From an uncultured Gammaproteobacteria bacterium (GTDB taxonomy: Bacteria; Patescibacteriota; Microgenomatia; Woykebacterales; RBG-16-39-9b): a stretch of 64,000 nucleotides of DNA. The stretch is taken from NCBI GenBank assembly GCA_965231125.1, contig OZ246414.1, forward strand, positions 576,137 to 640,136. The letters are read 5' to 3'. Below, in pieces: positions 25,371 to 33,185 of this stretch. Within the stretch, counting starts at the first letter, position 1. Each line of letters begins with the position of its first letter. The position numbers were made by a program, and so were the translations under genes. Below the pieces are notes generated by a model, which was given only the letters and a program-made list of their open reading frames with translations, was not told the origin of the DNA and ran no database searches.

Positions 25371-26006
25371 CTAGCTAAGTTTAAACAAATCAACTAGTGA
25401 AGTACCGCGAGCTTTAAAGTTACCGTACTGTTTATTCTTTTGATGAAGAGCTGCTGTAGATGCATTACTTTTTCTAAAAAACTCTTTATCTTTGAAGGCC
25501 AAATTGACCGGACAAGCACCTTGACCTTTGACAAAAACAGAATTTCGTAGCTCACAACACATTTCATCAAATTTATCAAAGTTTTCATCAGTAAACCCCA
25601 AAGTTACGATTTTACCTTTGTTAAGCTCTCCCATAACCCCTTTCTCGTCAAAATATCTAAATTTGTAAGCTTTGTATAGAACTTCCAACAAACCTTGATA
25701 GTGCTTTAAGGGCTTGAGGGTTAGGTTGTTCTCTTTCATAGTGGGTTCAATTATCTTAAAGATCTCTACTAGAATATGCTTATCTTCGATTTTCAGTTCT
25801 TTTATGGTTTTTTCATCAAAAAGCTCGTAAATTTTTAACTTCAAATACTGCTCCGCTGCTTGCTCTGCAATTGCTATCCCGGGTATTCGGAAGTTATTTA
25901 AGAGTAAAGAACGGGCTGCTAGGTAGTTACTATCCGCGAAAAAAAGGTAATTTTCTCTGGCAAAAAGGTTGTTTTGCAACATATTTTCGACCCGACTCTC
26001 AGGCAT
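25371..26006 (-). CDS. hypothetical protein (211 aa)
   Basis: Clean ORF with no confident domain. Located in the inter-recombinase island. Confidence 0.4.
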   Translation of the reverse strand: MPESRVENMLQNNLFARENYLFFADSNYLAARSLLLNNFRIPGIAIAEQAAEQYLKLKIYELFDEKTIKELKIEDKHILVEIFKIIEPTMKENNLTLKPLKHYQGLLEVLYKAYKFRYFDEKGVMGELNKGKIVTLGFTDENFDKFDEMCCELRNSVFVKGQGACPVNLAFKDKEFFRKSNASTAALHQKNKQYGNFKARGTSLVDLFKLS

Positions 26007-26009
26007 GGT

Positions 26010-26258
26010 TTAAAAATGGGGAATTCCAATACCTTCTGGGGGACCCAAAGCCCACCTATATATAAAAACCTGAATGACTACCCAAACAATATAACCTAAC
26101 ACTGATTCTTTCAGTTCATCTTCTGCAATTAGTATTGGGGCCGCAAGCCAAAAAGTATAAAAAATTATTAATAACATTTTTACCCAATCCCCATCGCCAA
26201 TCAACCATAAAGCAATAAAGAAAGAAAGAAATAGAAAAAATAATTTACTAATGTTCAT
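26010..26258 (-). CDS. small membrane protein
   Basis: 82 aa with two predicted TM helices. Confidence 0.3.
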   Translation of the reverse strand: MNISKLFFLFLSFFIALWLIGDGDWVKMLLIIFYTFWLAAPILIAEDELKESVLGYIVWVVIQVFIYRWALGPPEGIGIPHF

Positions 26259-26346
26259 AATATATATTTGTTTATATTAAATCCCTTCCATGTTAATAAG
26301 TCATGCACATCTTGGCTGAGAATGTAGGTCAATACCACAACTGTCG

Positions 26347-26829
26347 TTATAATTGACAGAATCTGGAAATTAAGAAAATAACATATAGTATGGCTATCAT
26401 TAATATCAAAACGTAAGAAGCCCCCGCGGTTCGTGGCCAACCAACTATTTTATTCTTCTTTTCGTTTCCCTTGGCAATAGGATCTAACTGGCTAACTTTT
26501 TTTGAATCTGCACCCTCCAACAAATGTTCTTCTTCTATTTCTCTTGCCGAATCAATCCAATGATCAATCCATTGAAACCCACGAAGAGTCATAGTAAACC
26601 ACAAGTAGCATGATATCAGTCCGGCAATTGGAAGAAAAGTTATAACTATCGAGGGGAATGGATCCTTATATGTAAAGCCAATGGCTGCTATAAGAATGGA
26701 ATTAAAAACTAATAAAGCGTTATATCTACTCCACAAAATCTCACTTTCAGAAGTATTCTTGTTAATAGCAATTTGATACTTAGCCACGGATTTTTCAATT
26801 CTCTCTTTATCAGTATCCATATGTTGCAA
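26347..26829 (-). CDS. membrane protein, hypothetical
   Basis: 160 aa with three or four hydrophobic helices. Confidence 0.4.
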   Translation of the reverse strand: MQHMDTDKERIEKSVAKYQIAINKNTSESEILWSRYNALLVFNSILIAAIGFTYKDPFPSIVITFLPIAGLISCYLWFTMTLRGFQWIDHWIDSAREIEEEHLLEGADSKKVSQLDPIAKGNEKKNKIVGWPRTAGASYVLILMIAILYVIFLISRFCQL

Positions 26830-26837
26830 TTTAGTAA

Positions 26838-26861
26838 TAAAAAATGCCCCACCCGGGGCAT
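26838..26861 (-). terminator. intrinsic terminator (minus strand)
   Basis: ATGCCCC...GGGGCAT hairpin followed by a T-run on the minus strand. Positioned downstream of the minus-strand cargo genes and repeat copy A. Confidence 0.45.
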
Positions 26862-26933
26862 TACCGAAATTATACCAAACAGTTTTCTGGAAGACAAGCG
26901 TGTGGTTTCAGAGGTGCACAATCTGGCTGGCGG

Positions 26934-27027
26934 TTTACGAAAAATGTCGAACTTCATTTGATTAGCTCGGCCTTCGGCCTCGCTTGCTCCAGCGCGGCGA
27001 CCCCACCCGCCGCGCCCCCGCTATTTT
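26934..27027 (+). repeat. GC-rich structured repeat, A part (copy 1, forward)
   Basis: 94-bp exact inverted match to 29176-29269. Contains a GGCC-TTCG-GGCC hairpin and a GCGCGGCG...CGCCGCGC hairpin. Confidence 0.8.
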
Positions 27028-27060
27028 TTGCGCGCGCGATTTTCTCGCCCTTCGGGCGAG

Positions 27061-27585
27061 CTAGGGTTTAAGCAATTTAATTACGCCGTCTACTCCTAGC
27101 TTTAGCACCGCAAGATTTGCAAGTTTATTTCCCTCTTGCTCATGGGAATAAAATTTTGGATTAAATGCTGTATGAATAACTCTTTCGAGATATTTAAAAT
27201 GATCATCTTCGCTCATAGTTATTGCAGCAACTGAATGCCCATGTAAGATTGGCAGAAAAAGCTCTAGGTTATTTGCTACTATACCGTCTCTTTCTTCACC
27301 AAATTTACCTTCTGGTGCAAATGGATAAGCATATTCTTCAAATGCGATGTTCTTGTTTTGAAGAAAACTTTTTGCTTTCGTCAAACATTCTTCTTTTGTA
27401 ATTCTGAAAATAATTTCTGGCTCAAAGAAAAAATGAAATTTTGGATCATCTTTGAGTGTGTGGTCGTATAGTTCTTTAACCAACGCTTTTAATTTTGGAA
27501 CATCACTAGTATTGACAGCGTTACCATTCAAAATTGGTACATAATTTTTTATATGTATAGTTTTAATATCCATATATATTTTCAA
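27061..27585 (-). CDS. hypothetical protein (cargo gene 1)
   Basis: 174-aa ORF whose stop abuts repeat A. No recognised domain. Confidence 0.4.
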   Translation of the reverse strand: MKIYMDIKTIHIKNYVPILNGNAVNTSDVPKLKALVKELYDHTLKDDPKFHFFFEPEIIFRITKEECLTKAKSFLQNKNIAFEEYAYPFAPEGKFGEERDGIVANNLELFLPILHGHSVAAITMSEDDHFKYLERVIHTAFNPKFYSHEQEGNKLANLAVLKLGVDGVIKLLKP

Positions 27586-27657
27586 GAGACATAATAGATT
27601 TCATGCTATTCCTAGTTTCCTAGGATTAACAATGGAAAAGTGCCAATAAGTGTAAAC

Positions 27658-28107
27658 TTATTTTGAAAGAAGATCTTTAATTCTTTTTTCTATTTCCTCG
27701 CGTTTGATCTTTTCCAGTTTCGCCTCGTTTCTAACAGCTTTTAGGCCTTCACCTCTTAACGTGTCAGAATCTAATATACTTGCCTTCATCCTACAATAAT
27801 CCGCATATAAGGAAGAATTGTAATCTTGCCAATCGTCTTGAATTCGTTGCAAGATTTTTTTGTCAAATTTATATCTTTCAATACTCCTTGCATAATCATC
27901 AACAAAGCTACGCAAGTCCTTTAATTCTTTAGACCACATTTCTACGTCTTGTTTGTAAATCTTAGTGTCCTCTTTCGAGTTATCGGGATCTTCTGAGTCC
28001 TTTTTTGCTCGCTCTATGTATTCTTCTAGTTCTTTTTCAGTAACTTGATACCAATATTTGTTGATGTCGTCTGGATTTTCAAATGGTCCGAATATTCCGT
28101 CGGTCAT
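27658..28107 (-). CDS. coiled-coil hypothetical protein (cargo gene 2)
   Basis: 149 aa, highly charged, predicted coiled coil. Confidence 0.4.
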   Translation of the reverse strand: MTDGIFGPFENPDDINKYWYQVTEKELEEYIERAKKDSEDPDNSKEDTKIYKQDVEMWSKELKDLRSFVDDYARSIERYKFDKKILQRIQDDWQDYNSSLYADYCRMKASILDSDTLRGEGLKAVRNEAKLEKIKREEIEKRIKDLLSK

Positions 28108-28172
28108 ATTACTCGTATTCTATCAATTTTTTCACAAAATTACTATAGAAATAGATAGTATCTCGCAAACCC

Positions 28173-28200
28173 TTGACACAAAAGAAAAACTATTTATAAT
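28173..28200 (+). promoter_or_regulatory. sigma70-like promoter (TTGACA-16-TATAAT)
   Basis: Sits in the divergent intergenic region and would drive cargo gene 3. Confidence 0.5.
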
Positions 28201-28237
28201 TGGTTCAAATATATACCTCTACGACTTGAAAGTAACT

Positions 28238-29101
28238 ATGACCAAAGATGAAGTTATAAATAAACTTAAAGAGTTAGCTATTAAATTACATACTCCTCGA
28301 TTAAGGCAGAAGGATATTCGATCAGTTAAAAGATTGGAATATTACATTTCAATTCATTTTAAGAAACTTGCACCTGCATTAAAAGCTGCCGGCCTGGACC
28401 CTACACCCTTAGCTGTCAAAATGAGCATTTCTGATAAAGAGTTACTTAGTTATCTTTTGGGGCTTGGAAAGAAAATTGGAAAAAAGCCGACTGTTATGGA
28501 CGTCAAGAGGGATGGTAGGTTTTCAGAAAAAATTTTTAAGAGGTTTGGGAATATCAAAAAGGCTTATGAACTAGCAACTAACGAATCCAAATCACAAACA
28601 ACCAAAGATGACAAAGAAGTATATTTAGTAGAATTTCCAAACAGACCAGTATTTTGGGGAAGGGCAGCAGAAATGTACATCGTAGCCGAGTTGATGTATC
28701 GAGGTTATAACTCAAGTCTTTTACCGGTTGATTTAGGAGTGGATGTCATTGCAATCAAAGATAGCAAAACTTTCTATTTCCAGGTTAAAAATATTTCTTT
28801 CGATAAAGTAGCAAGTAGAACTATTCCAATTACAACTAGTTCCTTCTCAAAAAATCAAAGCAGCAATATGTTCTATGTTTTTGTACTTCAACGCGGCCAA
28901 GGGAAAAATGTTCTTTTTCTTCCTTATCAGAAGATGCACGAACTCATTAACAAAAGCCTTATTTTGTTTAATAAAGAGAATAAAGATTTTTCGATATGTA
29001 TCTCTTTGAATGACAAGGTAGTAAATATTCATACACCCTCAGAAAGAACCAAGTTCGAAGACGTCTCTAGTTATCTTGATGATTGGGATGTAATTGTTTA
29101 A
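28238..29101 (+). CDS. hypothetical protein with possible PD-(D/E)xK nuclease-like C-terminal region (cargo gene 3)
   Basis: Start at ATG 28238 downstream of the promoter (the 6-frame ORF extends further upstream to 28058). VDLGVDVIAIKD...FYFQVKN resembles a D...(D/E)xK nuclease core. Weak evidence. Confidence 0.35.
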   Translation: MTKDEVINKLKELAIKLHTPRLRQKDIRSVKRLEYYISIHFKKLAPALKAAGLDPTPLAVKMSISDKELLSYLLGLGKKIGKKPTVMDVKRDGRFSEKIFKRFGNIKKAYELATNESKSQTTKDDKEVYLVEFPNRPVFWGRAAEMYIVAELMYRGYNSSLLPVDLGVDVIAIKDSKTFYFQVKNISFDKVASRTIPITTSSFSKNQSSNMFYVFVLQRGQGKNVLFLPYQKMHELINKSLILFNKENKDFSICISLNDKVVNIHTPSERTKFEDVSSYLDDWDVIV

Positions 29102-29175
29102 GTTCTTTAAAATTTTTGCGTTTTTTTCTTTTTAATCCCGATTTCATCGGGATTGTTCGAGCCGACAGTTTGGGA

Positions 29176-29388
29176 GGCGCGGCGGGTGGGGTCGCCGCGC
29201 TGGAGCAAGCGAGGCCGAAGGCCGAGCTAATCAAATGAAGTTCGACATTTTTCGTAAACCGCCAGCCAGTAAAGAGAAGAAAGAGGTTGGGAGGTAGCGC
29301 TTTCCGCGCCTTTACCCTGAGGAACGTAGGGCGCCTCCGCGGAAAGCGCGTCAAATCCGCCTTTTTTGAAACTTGCGGACAGCCGCCG
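29176..29388 (-). repeat. GC-rich structured repeat, complete unit B+A (copy 2, inverted)
   Basis: 29176-29269 is the reverse complement of A (26934-27027). 29262-29388 is the reverse complement of B (30883-31007). Contains a 12-bp perfect stem GCGCTTTCCGCG...CGCGGAAAGCGC. Confidence 0.8.
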
Positions 29389-29486
29389 TAAAAAGAAGGA
29401 AGAAAAACGCAAAAAATTGTGCTTCTTGAAAGAAGCCCTGCTCACTATCGTTCGCTTAAAGAACTTTTAAGAGATAAGATAGAAAT

Positions 29487-31016
29487 ATGATTAAATATAT
29501 CGCATATTGCAGAAAATCAACAGATGAACCGGACAGACAAATTTTGTCTATTGAGGCACAAGTTGCAGAACTTGAGGAATTCGCCGCAAAGGAGAATTTA
29601 AAAATAGTTTCTTTCATTACTGAGAGTAAAACTGCCAAAGAGCCAGGAAGACAAAAATTTGCGGAGGTTTTGGAAAAGATAGAAAACGGCGTAGCCGCCG
29701 GTATCATCTCATGGCATCCAGACAGACTTGCAAGAAATTCTGTTGATGGCGGAAAGATTATCTACTTATTGGATACCGGAAAATTACTTGATTTAAAATT
29801 TCCCAGTTTCTGGTTTGAGAATACTCCGCAAGGTAAATTTATGCTTAATATTGCTTTTGGTCAAAGCAAATATTATGTGGATAATCTTTCCGAAAATGTA
29901 AAACGAGGCAATCGCCAAAAACTTCGTCGCGGTGAGTGGCCTAACCAAGCGCAATTTGGCTATCTAAACATTAACAAGAAAATAGAGGTTGATAAGAAAC
30001 GAGCCAAGTATGTGCAACAAGCTTTCCAGCTTTTTGCTACCGGCGGCTATGGATTTGCTGACATCCGCAAATTTTTCAACGAAAACAAAATTTTCAATAA
30101 GTCCGGCCACGAACTTCATTTGGATAAAGTCAAAAGAATTCTGACTGATCCGTTTTACTACGGAGTAATGAGATTTTGCGGCGAACTTTACGAAGGAAAA
30201 CAGGAACCGCTAATATCCAAGAAACTTTTTGATAAGTGCCAAGAAGTAGTCAAACGCAAAAGCCGCAAGGTTAAAAATAACAAACACCTTTTTGATTTTC
30301 TAGGTTTGATTAAGTGTGGCGAATGTAGCGGCGCAATTACGGCGGAAAAACACACTAAGTATTACAAGCGAACTAATAGAACCGCTGAATATATTTACTA
30401 TCGTTGTTCCAAGAAAAAAGGTGCTTGCTCGCAAAAATATATTGAAAAGGTAGAAATTGAAAAGCAATTAAGGGAAAATGTTTTGCGAGCATCTTTGCCG
30501 CCGTTCGCCGCCAAAAAGTTTCTTGAGTGGGCCGATAAAGACGCAAACGAGGAAAAACAGAAATCTTCCGGTATTGTTTTGACCTATCAACTTCAACTCA
30601 AAGAAACAGAAGAAAAGACAGACCGTTTGCTTGAGGGATATCTCGATAAGATAATTAGTTCAGAAGATTACCAAAAGAAGAAAAACGAATTAGTAGAATC
30701 AAAGTCGCTTCTTAACTCCAAAATCAAGGATATTTTCCAAAACGGCGCTGAGTGGCTCGAACCTTTCCAAGAATTCGTAAATAGTGCGCTATCAGCGCAC
30801 AAAATCGCGCGCGCAAAAAATAGTTGCCATGATTTATCTATCATGGCAAAAACTGTCGGCTCGAACTTCTTTTTAATGGATCGGCGGCTGTCCGCAAGTT
30901 TCAAAAAAGGCGGATTTGACGCGCTTTCCGCGGAGGCGCCCTACGTTCCTCAGGGTAAAGGCGCGGAAAGCGCTACCTCCCAACCTCTTTCTTCTCTTTA
31001 CTGGCTGCCGGGCTAG
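29487..31016 (+). CDS. large serine recombinase (resolvase domain + recombinase domain + zinc-ribbon)
   Basis: N-terminus IAYCRKSTDEPDRQ with catalytic Ser. Cys-rich region CGEC...C...C. The last ~44 codons are encoded by repeat B, and the stop codon lies inside the 3' end of tRNA-Gln. Confidence 0.8.
   Translation: MIKYIAYCRKSTDEPDRQILSIEAQVAELEEFAAKENLKIVSFITESKTAKEPGRQKFAEVLEKIENGVAAGIISWHPDRLARNSVDGGKIIYLLDTGKLLDLKFPSFWFENTPQGKFMLNIAFGQSKYYVDNLSENVKRGNRQKLRRGEWPNQAQFGYLNINKKIEVDKKRAKYVQQAFQLFATGGYGFADIRKFFNENKIFNKSGHELHLDKVKRILTDPFYYGVMRFCGELYEGKQEPLISKKLFDKCQEVVKRKSRKVKNNKHLFDFLGLIKCGECSGAITAEKHTKYYKRTNRTAEYIYYRCSKKKGACSQKYIEKVEIEKQLRENVLRASLPPFAAKKFLEWADKDANEEKQKSSGIVLTYQLQLKETEEKTDRLLEGYLDKIISSEDYQKKKNELVESKSLLNSKIKDIFQNGAEWLEPFQEFVNSALSAHKIARAKNSCHDLSIMAKTVGSNFFLMDRRLSASFKKGGFDALSAEAPYVPQGKGAESATSQPLSSLYWLPG
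30883..31007 (+). repeat. GC-rich structured repeat, B part (copy 3, forward), fused to the tRNA-Gln 3' end
   Basis: 125-bp exact inverted match to 29262-29388. It ends in CTGGCTG, which also forms the discriminator+CCA of tRNA-Gln on the other strand. Confidence 0.8.
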
Positions 31017-31075
31017 GATTCGAACCTAGATAACAGGCTTCAAAGGCCCGTGTCCTACCGTTAGACGACCCGGCA
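31002..31075 (-). tRNA. tRNA-Gln (anticodon UUG)
   Basis: Fold: TGCCGGG/CCCGGCA acceptor, 3-bp D-stem, anticodon stem CGGGC/GCCTG with loop CTTTGAA, T-arm CTAGGTTCGAATCCTAG, discriminator G, CCA encoded. Confidence 0.75.
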
Positions 31076-31099
31076 ATAAATAACACTGTGTCGAATCCA

Positions 31100-31174
31100 T
31101 GGTGCCGAGGGAGGGAATTGAACCCCCGACGCTGTGCTCTTCAGGCACACGCTCTACCACTGAGCTACCTCGGC
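31100..31174 (-). tRNA. tRNA-Phe (anticodon GAA)
   Basis: Fold: GCCGAGG/CCTCGGC acceptor, anticodon stem TGTGC/GCACA with loop CTGAAGA, T-arm GGGGGTTCAATTCCCTC, CCA encoded. Confidence 0.85.
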
Positions 31175-31188
31175 ATGTAATTTATTTC

Positions 31189-31233
31189 TGGTGGGTGATT
31201 AGGGACTCGAACCCCAGACCTTCTCGGTATAAG
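31189..31233 (-). pseudogene. tRNA 3' half (anticodon-loop-to-CCA fragment, Val-like)
   Basis: Sequence CTTATAC-CGAGA-AGGTC-TGGGGTTCGAGTCCCTA-ATCACCC-A-CCA. There is no cognate 5' half adjacent. The complementary acceptor strand GGGTGAT lies at 31467-31473. Confidence 0.4.
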
Positions 31234-31258
31234 TCGCCTTGCGCCTTGCGAAAAATCC

Positions 31259-31336
31259 TGGTGGGCACTGAGGGACTCGAACCCCCGGCCTTCTCGGTGT
31301 AAACGAGACGCTCTAAACCAACTGAGCTAAGTGCCC
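31259..31336 (-). tRNA. tRNA-Val (anticodon UAC)
   Basis: Fold: GGGCACT/AGTGCCC acceptor, anticodon stem TCTCG/CGAGA with loop TTTACAC, T-arm GGGGGTTCGAGTCCCTC, CCA encoded. The acceptor helix is extended by the flanking inverted repeat GAAAAATCC/GGATTTTTC. Confidence 0.85.
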
Positions 31337-31439
31337 AGGATTTTTCTAAAACGAGACGCTCTTAGTCCACGACCTGCCTTCCAGCAGGCAAGAGTGGTCG
31401 CAGCATTTGAGAGTACCCAAATCACTTGGATTTGGTTAC

Positions 31440-31473
31440 GGAGAATGCTATCCTCCAACTGAGCTAATCACCC
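31440..31473 (-). pseudogene. tRNA 5' half (acceptor + D-arm start, GGGTGATTAGCTCAGTTGG...)
   Basis: Its acceptor strand is perfectly complementary to the ATCACCC of the 3' half at 31189-31233, about 205 nt away with tRNA-Val in between. Confidence 0.35.
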
Positions 31474-31483
31474 TCGTAATATT

Positions 31484-31569
31484 TGGTGCGGACGAGAGGA
31501 CTTGAACCTCCAACCCTTGCGGGACATGCACCTCAAGCATGCGCGTATACCAAATTCCGCCACGTCCGC
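31484..31569 (-). tRNA. tRNA-Leu (anticodon GAG), long variable arm
   Basis: Fold: GCGGACG/CGTCCGC acceptor, anticodon stem CATGC/GCATG with loop TTGAGGT, long variable arm, T-arm GGAGGTTCAAGTCCTCT, CCA encoded. Confidence 0.8.
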
Positions 31570-31577
31570 ATATAATA

Positions 31578-31662
31578 TGGTGCAGGTGAGAGGACTCGAA
31601 CCTCCAACCCTTGCGGGATACGGCTCTGAACCGTACGCGTATACCAGTTCCGCCACACCTGC
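31578..31662 (-). tRNA. tRNA-Leu (anticodon CAG), long variable arm
   Basis: Fold: GCAGGTG/CACCTGC acceptor, anticodon stem TACGG/CCGTA with loop TTCAGAG, long variable arm, T-arm GGAGGTTCGAGTCCTCT, CCA encoded. Confidence 0.8.
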
Positions 31663-31696
31663 ACGCCTACCATAGTCCACAAGCCAAGTCATAATT

Positions 31697-31744
31697 GGCG
31701 AAGTGGTCGCAGGATGCGTTAGCATCCTCTTCCGCCACCGCGGC
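31697..31744 (-). other. tRNA-like fragment / degenerate tRNA (no canonical T-arm)
   Basis: GCCGCGG-TGGCGGAAGAGG has a Leu-like acceptor and D-arm. It is followed by a GGATGC...GCATCC hairpin and ends in CGCCA. It does not fold into a complete cloverleaf. Confidence 0.25.
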
Positions 31745-31852
31745 ATTTTAGCTAAGATATTCTACCAAATCAACGGGTTTAGTTCAATTTGAGTGGATTA
31801 TTTTACCTCATTTTGTTAGAATTTACACGTTTTGCTGGGTTAGAGAAATTAT

Positions 31853-31926
31853 TCGGGGGTCGTCTAATGGTAGGACAACAGACTCTGGATCTGTGAATTG
31901 GGGTTCGAATCCCTGCCCCCGAGCCA
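31853..31926 (+). tRNA. tRNA-Gln (anticodon CUG)
   Basis: Fold: TCGGGGG/CCCCCGA acceptor, anticodon stem ACAGA/TCTGT with loop CTCTGGA, T-arm GGGGTTCGAATCCC, discriminator G, CCA encoded. Confidence 0.8.
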
Positions 31927-31991
31927 AAGTGAGAATCCTTAGTCCGAAGGACGCAGGATGCACTGGCATACTGATCCCGCAGCCAACTACC

Positions 31992-33185
31992 ATGAGTAAA
32001 ACAGAAACTGCAAAAATTTTATTAAAAGGTCTTGTCGCACCGGCCGGTTGGACAAATCCCGCACCGGCCGGTGAATTAAAAACCCAGTTAGAAAAATATT
32101 TTCAAACAAGAGTCTTCCCAATTAATTCTGGAAGAGCTGCCATCTACTCAATTTTAAAGTCCACCGGTATTGGTGAGGGAGATGAAGTTATAATCCAAGC
32201 CTACACTTGTAACGCCGTCCCGAACCCGGTTTTGTGGGCCAGTGCTACACCAATTTATTCCGATATAGATGAAGAAACTTTGAATGTTAATCCCGAAAGT
32301 CTCAAGGAAAAAATAACTGCAAAAACAAAAGCAATAATACTGCAGCATACTTTCGGGCGGCCGGGGCCAATTGAAGAAGTGTTGGAAATCGCCAAAAACC
32401 ACAACCTTTTGGTCATCGAAGACTGCGCCCACAGCCTTGGGGCTGAGTATAAAGGTAAAAAGCTCGGAACTTTTGGGGATTTCGCCATCGTATCTTTCGG
32501 AAGAGAAAAAGTTATCAGTTCGCTTTCCGGTGGTGCTATATTAGTAAACAATAAAAGGTTCATTGGAGCAATTGATGAGTTTACCAAAGGCCTTAGCTAC
32601 CCTTCTTTTATAACCTACTTAAAAGAATTTAATAATTTTTTTACTTGGCGGCTCTTAATTAGAAAAGTCTTTTTTAGCGGTTTTGGTGCCGGCTTGTTGA
32701 ATTTTCTCAACAGTCAGGATTTTTTCAACGTGGTTACTTCAAGTAAAGAACTCTCTGGGGAAAAACCGCCTTGGTACCCAGCGGCATTTCCCGGAACTTT
32801 TGCCAAAATTGCTTTGCTAGAATTTCCTAAAATTGATGAAATCAACCAGCGAAGAAACGAGATTGCCCACTTTTACGAAAAAAATATCAAGAACGGCGCT
32901 TTTAGACTGTTACCTCACCACGAAGGAATTTACTTGAGGTTTGTAGTTTTGCACGAAAACCCAACTCCTATCTTTGAGGAGGCTAAAAAACGCCATTTTT
33001 GGTTCGGAAATTGGTACAGCAGCCCAATTTACCCGTCAAGGGCAGATATAGCTAAAATGCACTACGACGAGGGCACCTGCCCAGTAGCGGAAAAAATTGC
33101 TTCGCAAACTATTAACCTGCCAAACTATGTCGGGATGAAAGATGACGAGGTACAGGAAGTGGTTGGTTTTATAAATAACTACTAG
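31992..33185 (+). CDS. DegT/DnrJ/EryC1/StrS-family PLP-dependent sugar aminotransferase
   Basis: Start at ATG 31992 (the upstream ORF extension overlaps the tRNA). Motifs HTFGRPGPIEEV...LLVIEDCAHSLGA...GDFAIVSFGREK are typical of this family, including the Schiff-base Lys region. Confidence 0.75.
   Translation: MSKTETAKILLKGLVAPAGWTNPAPAGELKTQLEKYFQTRVFPINSGRAAIYSILKSTGIGEGDEVIIQAYTCNAVPNPVLWASATPIYSDIDEETLNVNPESLKEKITAKTKAIILQHTFGRPGPIEEVLEIAKNHNLLVIEDCAHSLGAEYKGKKLGTFGDFAIVSFGREKVISSLSGGAILVNNKRFIGAIDEFTKGLSYPSFITYLKEFNNFFTWRLLIRKVFFSGFGAGLLNFLNSQDFFNVVTSSKELSGEKPPWYPAAFPGTFAKIALLEFPKIDEINQRRNEIAHFYEKNIKNGAFRLLPHHEGIYLRFVVLHENPTPIFEEAKKRHFWFGNWYSSPIYPSRADIAKMHYDEGTCPVAEKIASQTINLPNYVGMKDDEVQEVVGFINNY

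Follow-up and report, generated by a model that had tools for sequence, protein, structure and literature searches.

A serine-integrase type element at the 3′ end of a tRNA-Gln gene with an additional, inverted attP-like site

A 64-kb stretch of contig OZ246414.1 (hereafter the window, meaning the whole stretch, whose positions serve as coordinates) carries a large serine recombinase (LSR) gene that abuts a tRNA-Gln(UUG) gene and is accompanied by three copies of a GC-rich repeat. The recombinase comprises 509 amino acids, in which the domains PF00239 (Resolvase, E = 1.5e-21), PF07508 (Recombinase, 8.9e-15) and PF13408 (Zn_ribbon_recom, 5.1e-9) follow one another in this order, and it matches PHROG 95, an integrase group, at 1e-72. 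In an alignment of 22 homologues, the motif Y-C-R-K-S-T-D (residues 7-13) is invariant or nearly so, and by analogy S11 would be the catalytic nucleophile; residues ~340-420 are heptad-like and conserved in the same alignment, a candidate for the coiled coil within the zinc-ribbon domain by which LSRs control directionality. The enzyme is thus a member of the LSR family, and the element to which it belongs is an integrative element of the serine-integrase type. The stop codon of the open reading frame (ORF) lies 15 nt inside the antisense strand of tRNA-Gln, and the final ~45 codons consist of one half of the GC-rich repeat, as had been proposed in an earlier note on this DNA, which described a recombinase tail made of repeat sequence that runs into the end of the tRNA gene.

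A repeat search of the window recovered the copies as two inverted pairs. Pair I2 (26923-27019 and 29173-29269) is 97 nt long and 99% identical, pair I1 (29252-29388 and 30882-31018) is 137 nt long and 97% identical, and the two overlap within the middle copy at the core CCGCCAGCCAG. When 35-nt probes were taken, one from each of the repeat halves or arms, A and B, each occurred twice in the window, where shuffled sequences lead one to expect no occurrence. The search and the probes bear out the pattern that the earlier note had described, with A alone on the left, a complete inverted unit in the middle and B alone on the right. The left copy is real, but it starts with the core at 26923 and not at 26934 as had been given. 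All three copies have CTGGCTG in common, and the letters that follow are CCGG in the tRNA copy and GCGG in the other two; therefore, any exchange would be confined to CTGGCTG. On the right, this core is also the CCA-discriminator end of tRNA-Gln, so that the encoded CCA and the 3′ trailer of the tRNA now come from arm B. The perfect 12-bp stem GCGCTTTCCGCG/CGCGGAAAGCGC that had been noticed is present in both B copies (30921-30973 and 29304-29356), and the hairpin at 30921-30973 holds a 21-nt insertion.

Shorter motifs surround the copies (Table 1). Of the 16- and 23-nt motifs claimed in the earlier note, the 23-nt one (I3) was confirmed together with its partner in the recombinase gene; the other proved to be 17 nt long, with I10′ being a 100% inverted copy of recombinase codons. 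The middle copy is bracketed by a 16-nt inverted pair (I15), and the hairpin between I15 and I10′ keeps its place across related loci with a different sequence in each. In the host flank, a terminator-like hairpin is probably the native terminator of the tRNA operon, now parted from tRNA-Gln by the element.

Table 1. Features of the element and its immediate surroundings, in window positions.
Feature	Position	Strand	Description
Terminator-like hairpin in host flank	26843-26862	-	8-bp stem, then TTTTTT on the minus strand
Predicted attL	26923-27019	+	Core CTGGCTG(GCGG) 26923-26933, then arm A (element-side P′ half); host flank on the left
Motif I3, CTATTTTTTGCGCGCGCGATTTT	27021-27043	+	Inner edge of left arm; inverted copy of recombinase codons 30801-30823, 100%
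Hairpin after I3	27044-27060		
Cargo segment	27061-29101		ORFs 27061-27585 (-), 27658-28107 (-), 28238-29101 (+; HNH_repeat domain)
Consensus sigma-70-like promoter within cargo	28173-28200		
Left bracket of internal site	29110-29171	+	I15 29110-29125, variable hairpin 29134-29154, I10′ 29155-29171
Predicted internal intact attP, inverted	29173-29388	-	A′ 29173-29258, core′ CCGCCAGCCAG 29259-29269, B′ 29270-29388
I15′, AAAAACGCAAAAAATT, right bracket of internal site	29403-29418	+	Just upstream of recombinase gene; conserved in relatives
Large serine recombinase gene	29487-31016	+	509 aa
I3′, hairpin and I10	30801-30823, 30824-30849, 30850-30866	+	Inside recombinase 3′ coding region
Predicted attR	30882-31008	+	Arm B 30882-31001, core CTGGCTG 31002-31008
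tRNA-Gln(UUG), target gene	31002-31075	-	Intact

A single search returned about 7,900 homologues of the recombinase at E <= 0.001, nearly all of them from Patescibacteria/Microgenomates; full-length identity is 87-92% for many. The C-terminal tails of homologues read ...DSN(P/Q/H)..., the translation of a tRNA T-arm in antisense. Six relatives (P0018, P0026, P0029, P0041, P0045 and P0047) are 865-890 aa long, some 370 aa longer than the others. We compared ~160 related loci, made up of the loci of three homologues, 80 genome loci and 73 metagenome contigs; counts for genome loci were taken over 86 loci, and those for metagenomes over the 73 contigs. The recombinase ORF runs into the 3′ end of an opposite-strand tRNA gene in at least 63 of the 86 genome loci, and inverted repeats of 80-146 nt, mostly 95-100% identical, flank the recombinase gene in 72 of them. 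Junctions could be read in 45 loci, representing 42 distinct elements, and all 45 carry the same three: flank, core and A on the left; B, core and A, inverted, between cargo and recombinase; and B, core and tRNA on the right. The proposal that attP and attB recombined to give attL and attR, with the crossover in the tRNA 3′ terminus, holds in every one of them.

The standard order of parts is flank joined to A, I3, hairpin, cargo, I15, hairpin, I10′, A′ joined to B′, I15′ and recombinase, followed by I3′, hairpin, I10 and B joined to the tRNA. In all loci, the internal site precedes the recombinase start by 100-200 nt. Judged by this comparison, the three-site layout is the standard design of a very large family of compact LSR elements in Microgenomates and the Candidate Phyla Radiation (CPR).

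The common core of 4-7 nt (GCTG for Gln, GTGA for Lys, Glu and Val, GTCG for Pro, GTGG for Ile) corresponds in reverse complement to the tRNA stretch made up of the final two bases of the acceptor stem, the discriminator and C74. Such a match between core and tRNA 3′ end was read for targets of the Gln, Lys, Glu, Val, Pro, Arg, Leu, Trp and Ile kinds. Relatives that are at least 80% identical reside at tRNA-Gln, and clades at 50-60% identity are found at Lys, Glu, Val, Pro, Arg, Leu, Ser, Trp, Ile or Phe genes, such that the family as a whole uses at least 11 tRNA types, which differ by clade. A TTCGAAC-like motif, the universal T-arm sequence, occurs on both sides: its distance to the core is 11 nt in the tRNA (19 of 24 loci) and 15-16 nt in arm A (22 of 26). 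Work on LI integrase and its attP reportedly placed the zinc-ribbon-domain motif 4-5 bp further out in attP than in attB half-sites, which is said to be a hallmark of the class. The offset between 11 and 15-16 nt is that expected of serine-integrase attB and attP half-sites. The general model likewise has the recombinase domains placed differently on P and B half-sites (PMC5499577). These comparisons indicate that the enzyme family probably recognizes the T-arm motif TTCGAAC, which would account for the moves of the family between tRNA targets. The host-side flank is unconserved across loci, a property that would let the B arm of an older element act as the flank for an incoming one.

Near-identical recombinases occur with different flanks in Blackburn-, Gottesman-, Levy-, Collier-, Ames-, Chisholm- and Roizmanbacteria, and recombinases that are 87-91% identical are found with unrelated cargo in different CPR classes, a distribution that points to horizontal mobility. 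The recombinase is the sole gene common to the elements. The family cargo between A and A′ spans 0.55-7.2 kb and is almost never common to two elements. Examples include EamA and MFS transporters, a glycosyltransferase, an RmlD-like enzyme, a subtilase, surface proteins, an OLD/AbiEii-like ATPase, a LexA-methylase fusion and many unknowns. Among the three cargo ORFs of the window, the HNH_repeat-associated match is the sole informative one, and their proteins yielded no defense-system or phage family match beyond it. Viral contigs contained no relatives.

Arrays are frequent in the family. L011 and L030 each have a tRNA cluster that holds two elements; in L022, L024, L050 and L063, an old B arm fused to a new A arm forms the left site; and tandem cassettes that lack a recombinase occur in L092, L103 and L149, with arrays, recombinase-less cassettes or both also listed for L089. 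Comparison of these loci shows that insertion again at the regenerated tRNA end builds arrays, whose older members lose the recombinase and become cassettes. In another locus (L108, 1-3345), a 2.8-kb module with genes for a glycosidase-like and a secreted protein, and without a recombinase, is situated between inverted complete sites (267 nt, 95% identical) whose B arms face inward; therefore, modules other than the recombinase can fill the B-flanked position. L022 (4205-4460 and 9380-9500) is chimeric: its recombinase body and internal site belong to a first Gln type, and a second type, also targeting Gln, is represented by the 3′ end of the recombinase together with arm B and the core GTGTTG. 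There the swap begins at the I3′ motif and the left site is a hybrid of B from the second type and A from the first, which suggests that att arms have been traded between lineages.

The earlier note had argued that an inverted complete copy would permit inversion of both the cargo and the recombinase segment, and the related loci support this for the cargo only. The 3.2 kb of cargo in L024, together with both arms, aligns in reverse with that of L121 at 84% identity, and L146 and L137 likewise have the same cargo module and arms in opposite orientation; in both pairs the recombinase modules are collinear. The cargo segment therefore does turn around between the A arms, albeit rarely. Of the 42 distinct genome elements, 37 have I3 next to the left arm and 31 have I10′ ahead of the internal arm; the two are swapped only in L024. 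The 73 metagenome contigs have 53 internal sites of the standard kind and three that are clearly swapped (L099, L146 and L162), in addition to a swapped short contig (L091). Overall, the cargo is flipped in only ~5% of elements and ~95% have one orientation. An inverted recombinase segment, with the tRNA next to B′, was found in none of 72 loci, and the recombinase always points at the tRNA. Because of this bias, the sites cannot be recombining freely, which speaks against a freely reversible switch.

The arms resemble each other far more within an element than between elements: copies inside one element differ by about 2% and are 96-100% identical in most cases, whereas in elements with ~90% identical recombinases the same arms differ by 7-25%. 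Paired stem changes from TTT/AAA to TTG/CAA are found in both copies of an element, and the 21-nt insertion in the B hairpin loop is likewise in both copies, in the window element and in the Lys-type element of L031. Conservative exchange at the core cannot copy sequence, and hence some gene conversion between the inverted copies must occur. Mismatches between arm copies are denser toward the distal ends, a trend that is confounded by BLAST end effects. In Gln- and Lys-type elements, the B-arm loop carries the same 19-21-nt mini-hairpin, TACCCTGAGGAACGTAGGG, always in both arm copies (window 29313-29331 and 30939-30957; L006 1577-1595; L031 7882-7900 and 9450-9468). A different insertion occupies the same spot in L013, L001 has an insertion in the A hairpin loop, and hairpin loops seem to be insertion hot spots.

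The hairpins themselves are a conserved property of the arms. In nearly all clades, a stem of 9-16 bp capped by an 8-nt loop is found in arm B at ~47 nt from the core. We observed 34 distinct stem sequences for this hairpin; because the hairpins were chosen by pairing, counts of pairs would be unfair, and we used a shuffle control instead, in which the stem beats 99% of shuffles in 32 of 62 loci. The B-arm loops are of two recurrent kinds, CCCGCCTC-like and GGTGGGG-like, and arm A carries the GGTGGGG-like kind. In an A′ hairpin, tandem G·A mismatches are retained and the inner stem covaries. The fold of the internal unit, on one strand as on the other (z = -3.4 and -3.7), has several hairpins closed by a stem of 16-20 bp. 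In the recombinase tail, the near-palindromic peptide ALSAEAGAESA results from the B-arm stem being palindromic DNA, which suggests that nucleic-acid structure, rather than the tail peptide, is conserved. The hairpins, which keep their positions and vary in sequence, might act in DNA or in RNA.

The interpretation that we favor, with a probability of roughly 0.6, is that 26923-31008 constitutes a ~4.1-kb integrative element that was put into the 3′ end of tRNA-Gln(UUG) by its own LSR, that the middle copy is a live second attP that makes the cargo invertible or exchangeable, and that the arms are kept alike by conversion. The comparisons give good support to LSR-mediated integration at the end of the tRNA gene, and the role of the internal site is what we infer. 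The free form would be a circle, and the attP at the recombinase 3′ end would recombine with the tRNA by exchange in the 4-7-nt core, a stretch running from the final two bases of the acceptor stem through the discriminator to the first C of CCA. This would leave attL as flank joined to A and attR as B joined to the tRNA. The internal attP would remain as a second live site that, together with attL, turns the cargo into an invertible, exchangeable module, and gene conversion between the arm copies would keep the arms alike. Under this model, the cargo-flipped junction would read from the flank through A into AAACTGTCGGCTCGAAC, the empty site would consist of GGTGCACAAT, CTGGCTG and CCGGGCTAGG in succession, and the circle junction would lead from the recombinase 3′ end through B and A into CTATTTTTTGCG. 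We prefer a live internal site because both long arms fuse exactly at the core in every clade and because recombinase modules are not flipped.

A number of observations weigh against this interpretation. An exact scan for the tRNA-Gln 3′ half in metagenome contigs gave no empty site, and a lookup of two flanking proteins yielded only short same-species contigs that end at the repeat or within the tRNA cluster; the species is present in SRR6155503, SRR6155504 and JGI 3300010391. The pattern expected of a free circle (recombinase 3′ end, B, core, A) was absent from the first 88 loci; 12 homologues whose tails read into an A-type arm belong to tandem arrays wherever the contig is readable. Between three and five members of the family (L049, L066 and L077 among them) have a recombinase and B joined to a tRNA with no internal or left copy within 7-8 kb upstream, and may represent a decayed or a simpler form. 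Integration in both directions would be expected of a circle whose two attP sites are equivalent, which is contrary to the orientation bias described above; given that none of the 72 recombinase segments is flipped, if a two-attP circle exists, then either insertion relies solely on the site at the recombinase 3′ end or the other orientation is lost. The rare cargo flips could in principle be assembly errors at inverted repeats, but the arms of L024 differ by 5%, which should permit correct assembly. Cargo inversion could also come from homologous recombination between the 100-nt arms rather than from the recombinase. Finally, in the absence of a directionality factor, the reaction of canonical serine integrases is restricted to attP and attB (PMC5499577, PMC12286644), and by this rule attL and attP should not react.

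The same rule favors a different account of the internal copy, which we regard as possible but rather doubtful. Here the element integrated as described above, but the internal copy is a silent operator or insulator that binds the recombinase, in a position comparable to that of res in Tn3, RecA-type conversion keeps it like the other copies, and the cargo flips by homologous recombination between 100-nt repeats. The constant location of the copy just upstream of the recombinase gene suits an operator, as does the fact that cargo genes point away from the site in about two thirds of elements. Both the orientation bias and the lack of flipped recombinase modules suit a silent site, an exchange between attP and attL is forbidden under serine-integrase rules (PMC5499577), and arm mismatches look neutral and increase distally, as conversion tracts would produce. 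However, ~50 bp would suffice for an operator, yet every clade keeps both arms at 100-140 nt and joined precisely at the core, and this holds even where the tRNA target has changed. Moreover, if crossovers were homologous, flipped recombinase modules should be as frequent as flipped cargo, and not one was seen.

It is improbable, in our estimation, that the GC-rich arms are primarily structured-RNA genes or untranslated regions, serving as the recombinase 5′ leader, as a 3′ end structure of the cargo or as a replacement trailer and terminator for the tRNA. The stable fold of the internal unit on either strand would fit such a role, and so would the kept tandem G·A mismatches of the A′ hairpin with its covarying inner stem and a B-arm hairpin that retains its place and 8-nt loop while the stem changes wholly between clades; insertion also severs the tRNA from its native terminator. 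However, a scan of 26000-32500 against Rfam 15 at E <= 1 returned tRNAs only and no other family, and a consensus fold of 18 close relatives gave little covariation support, there being too little variation among them. Canonical terminators were considered for the arms and rejected, since no U-runs come after their hairpins. A long-range pairing between the arm copies as RNA, which would join the recombinase 5′ leader to the 3′ end, finds no support either, because there is no G·U excess on either strand (33 versus 45 for B and 22 versus 31 for A) and such pairing is thus not selected. An RNA role would also leave unaccounted for the exact coincidence of repeat limits with recombination cores. 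The idea that the layout arose by faulty assembly, or by a single rearrangement peculiar to this genome, can practically be dismissed. Contigs do often end at repeat limits (L086 begins exactly at 30882, and L014, L036, L062 and L078 begin inside B′), and L029 has a palindromic contig end, but the layout recurs in more than 100 independently assembled contigs from many projects, including the complete CPR genomes CP011210 and CP055307, which refutes this idea. In L029 itself, positions 1-448, at the contig end, are the exact reverse complement of 715-1162, the recombinase 5′ region beyond the internal site, which is either an assembly palindrome or a real inverted duplication. We also considered an origin from two circles inserted in succession, a recombinase circle with B joined to B′ and a cargo circle with A′ joined to A. 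The order of arms fits, but this origin needs a forward or palindromic core before B′; it is ruled out by the reversed internal core and by the asymmetry of the Lys (GTGA) and Ile (GTGG) cores.

Beyond a live second attP in the window element, a bolder proposal, which we consider speculative and on the unlikely side, is that the family constitutes a CPR serine-recombinase cassette system whose modules are bounded by complete alternating sites, with the internal attP as a working part either for inversion, swapping and stacking or as a complementary splint. In the former version, the internal attP would let modules invert, swap and stack at tRNA genes, much as an integron built on an LSR might. 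In the latter version, the ends core-A and B-core would be complementary to A′-core′-B′, so that a linear single strand acquired by natural competence could fold, circularize and integrate without an excision factor; DIRS retroelements have an internal complementary region of their own that resembles this proposed splint.

Other features are located downstream of the element in the window. Pieces that resemble tRNA occupy 31188-31232, 31349-31362 and 31440-31478: a partial copy of tRNA-Val(UAC), 84% identical to its 3′ part and 70 nt downstream of the gene, a 14-nt repeat of the anticodon arm, and a tRNA 5′-half-like stretch whose acceptor strand matches the partial copy. Neither ARAGORN nor Rfam called a gene in this region, and these pieces may be scars of other integrations or a split tRNA. 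A second tRNA-Gln gene (CUG; 31853-31926), 850 nt away on the opposite strand, is unoccupied and is directly followed by a DegT-family gene; in other genomes, this tRNA serves as a target for relatives of the window element.

If our interpretation is true, CPR bacteria and Microgenomates, for which routes of gene exchange are poorly known, carry very abundant minimal mobile elements that consist of one enzyme and one to a few cargo genes, and the family would account for part of the strain-level gene variation beside tRNA clusters. We found no description in the literature of this CPR family, of an internal inverted attP or of long structured arms. The family offers a natural series of related serine integrases that have switched among at least 11 tRNA targets with the same T-arm motif, a resource for studying how targets are chosen and for engineering that choice. 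The internal inverted attP, the hairpin arms of 100-140 nt and their concerted evolution are unpredicted by the current serine-integrase model, which holds that attP recombines with attB only, at sites of 40-50 bp, and that a directionality factor is needed for the reverse reaction. How the elements excise, spread and exchange cargo is a question that can be tested.

Among the known systems that come close are the phage and ICE serine integrases (phiC31, Bxb1, A118/LI integrase), which have the same order of Resolvase, Recombinase and zinc-ribbon domains, the same conversion of attP and attB to attL and attR, and a very short common core. Serine integrases also place a half-site motif 4-5 bp further from the center in the element site than in the host site. 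Unlike these systems with their 40-50-bp sites, the window family has arms of 100-140 nt with covarying hairpins, retains an extra intact inverted attP inside the integrated element, has a recombinase ORF that crosses its own attP, and targets the CCA/discriminator end of tRNA genes. It also has no conserved gene for a directionality factor, since only the recombinase is common to the elements. Hin, Gin and Cin invertases and the res-tnpR module of Tn3, in which res lies between tnpA and tnpR, are similar in having a serine recombinase gene beside inverted crossover sites that bound an invertible segment and a full site directly upstream of that gene, often facing divergent genes. However, these enzymes are small serine recombinases (~190 aa for Hin and Gin) that end in a C-terminal helix-turn-helix, whereas the 509-aa window protein has LSR domains; the Hin/Gin/Cin and Tn3 systems need an enhancer with Fis or accessory subsites and do not integrate; and the window family, with its strong preference for one orientation and with both seen for the cargo only, is no balanced switch.

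Tycheposons resemble the family as small cargo-bearing elements located by tRNA genes in streamlined genomes, where new insertions push older ones inward and degenerate remnants are left behind. For these, 910 of 937 were reported to have tyrosine recombinases, with partial tRNA repeats as flanks and with replication genes in many (bioRxiv 10.1101/2020.12.28.424599); in contrast, the window family duplicates only 4-11 nt of the tRNA, has no common replication gene and carries an internal inverted site. An excised circle would, by inference, resemble the yeast 2-micron plasmid with its FLP/FRT system in holding two long identical inverted sites that split two unique segments, although FLP is a tyrosine recombinase of a eukaryotic plasmid and only one of the two sites of the window family is apparently used for integration. 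Integrons share with the family variable cassettes of one or a few genes bounded by sites of conserved hairpin structure and varying sequence, as well as cassette arrays that lack a recombinase (here L092 and L149). Their tyrosine recombinase IntI, however, acts on folded single-stranded attC at a fixed attI platform, whereas the serine recombinase of the window family travels with its cassette and inserts at tRNA genes.

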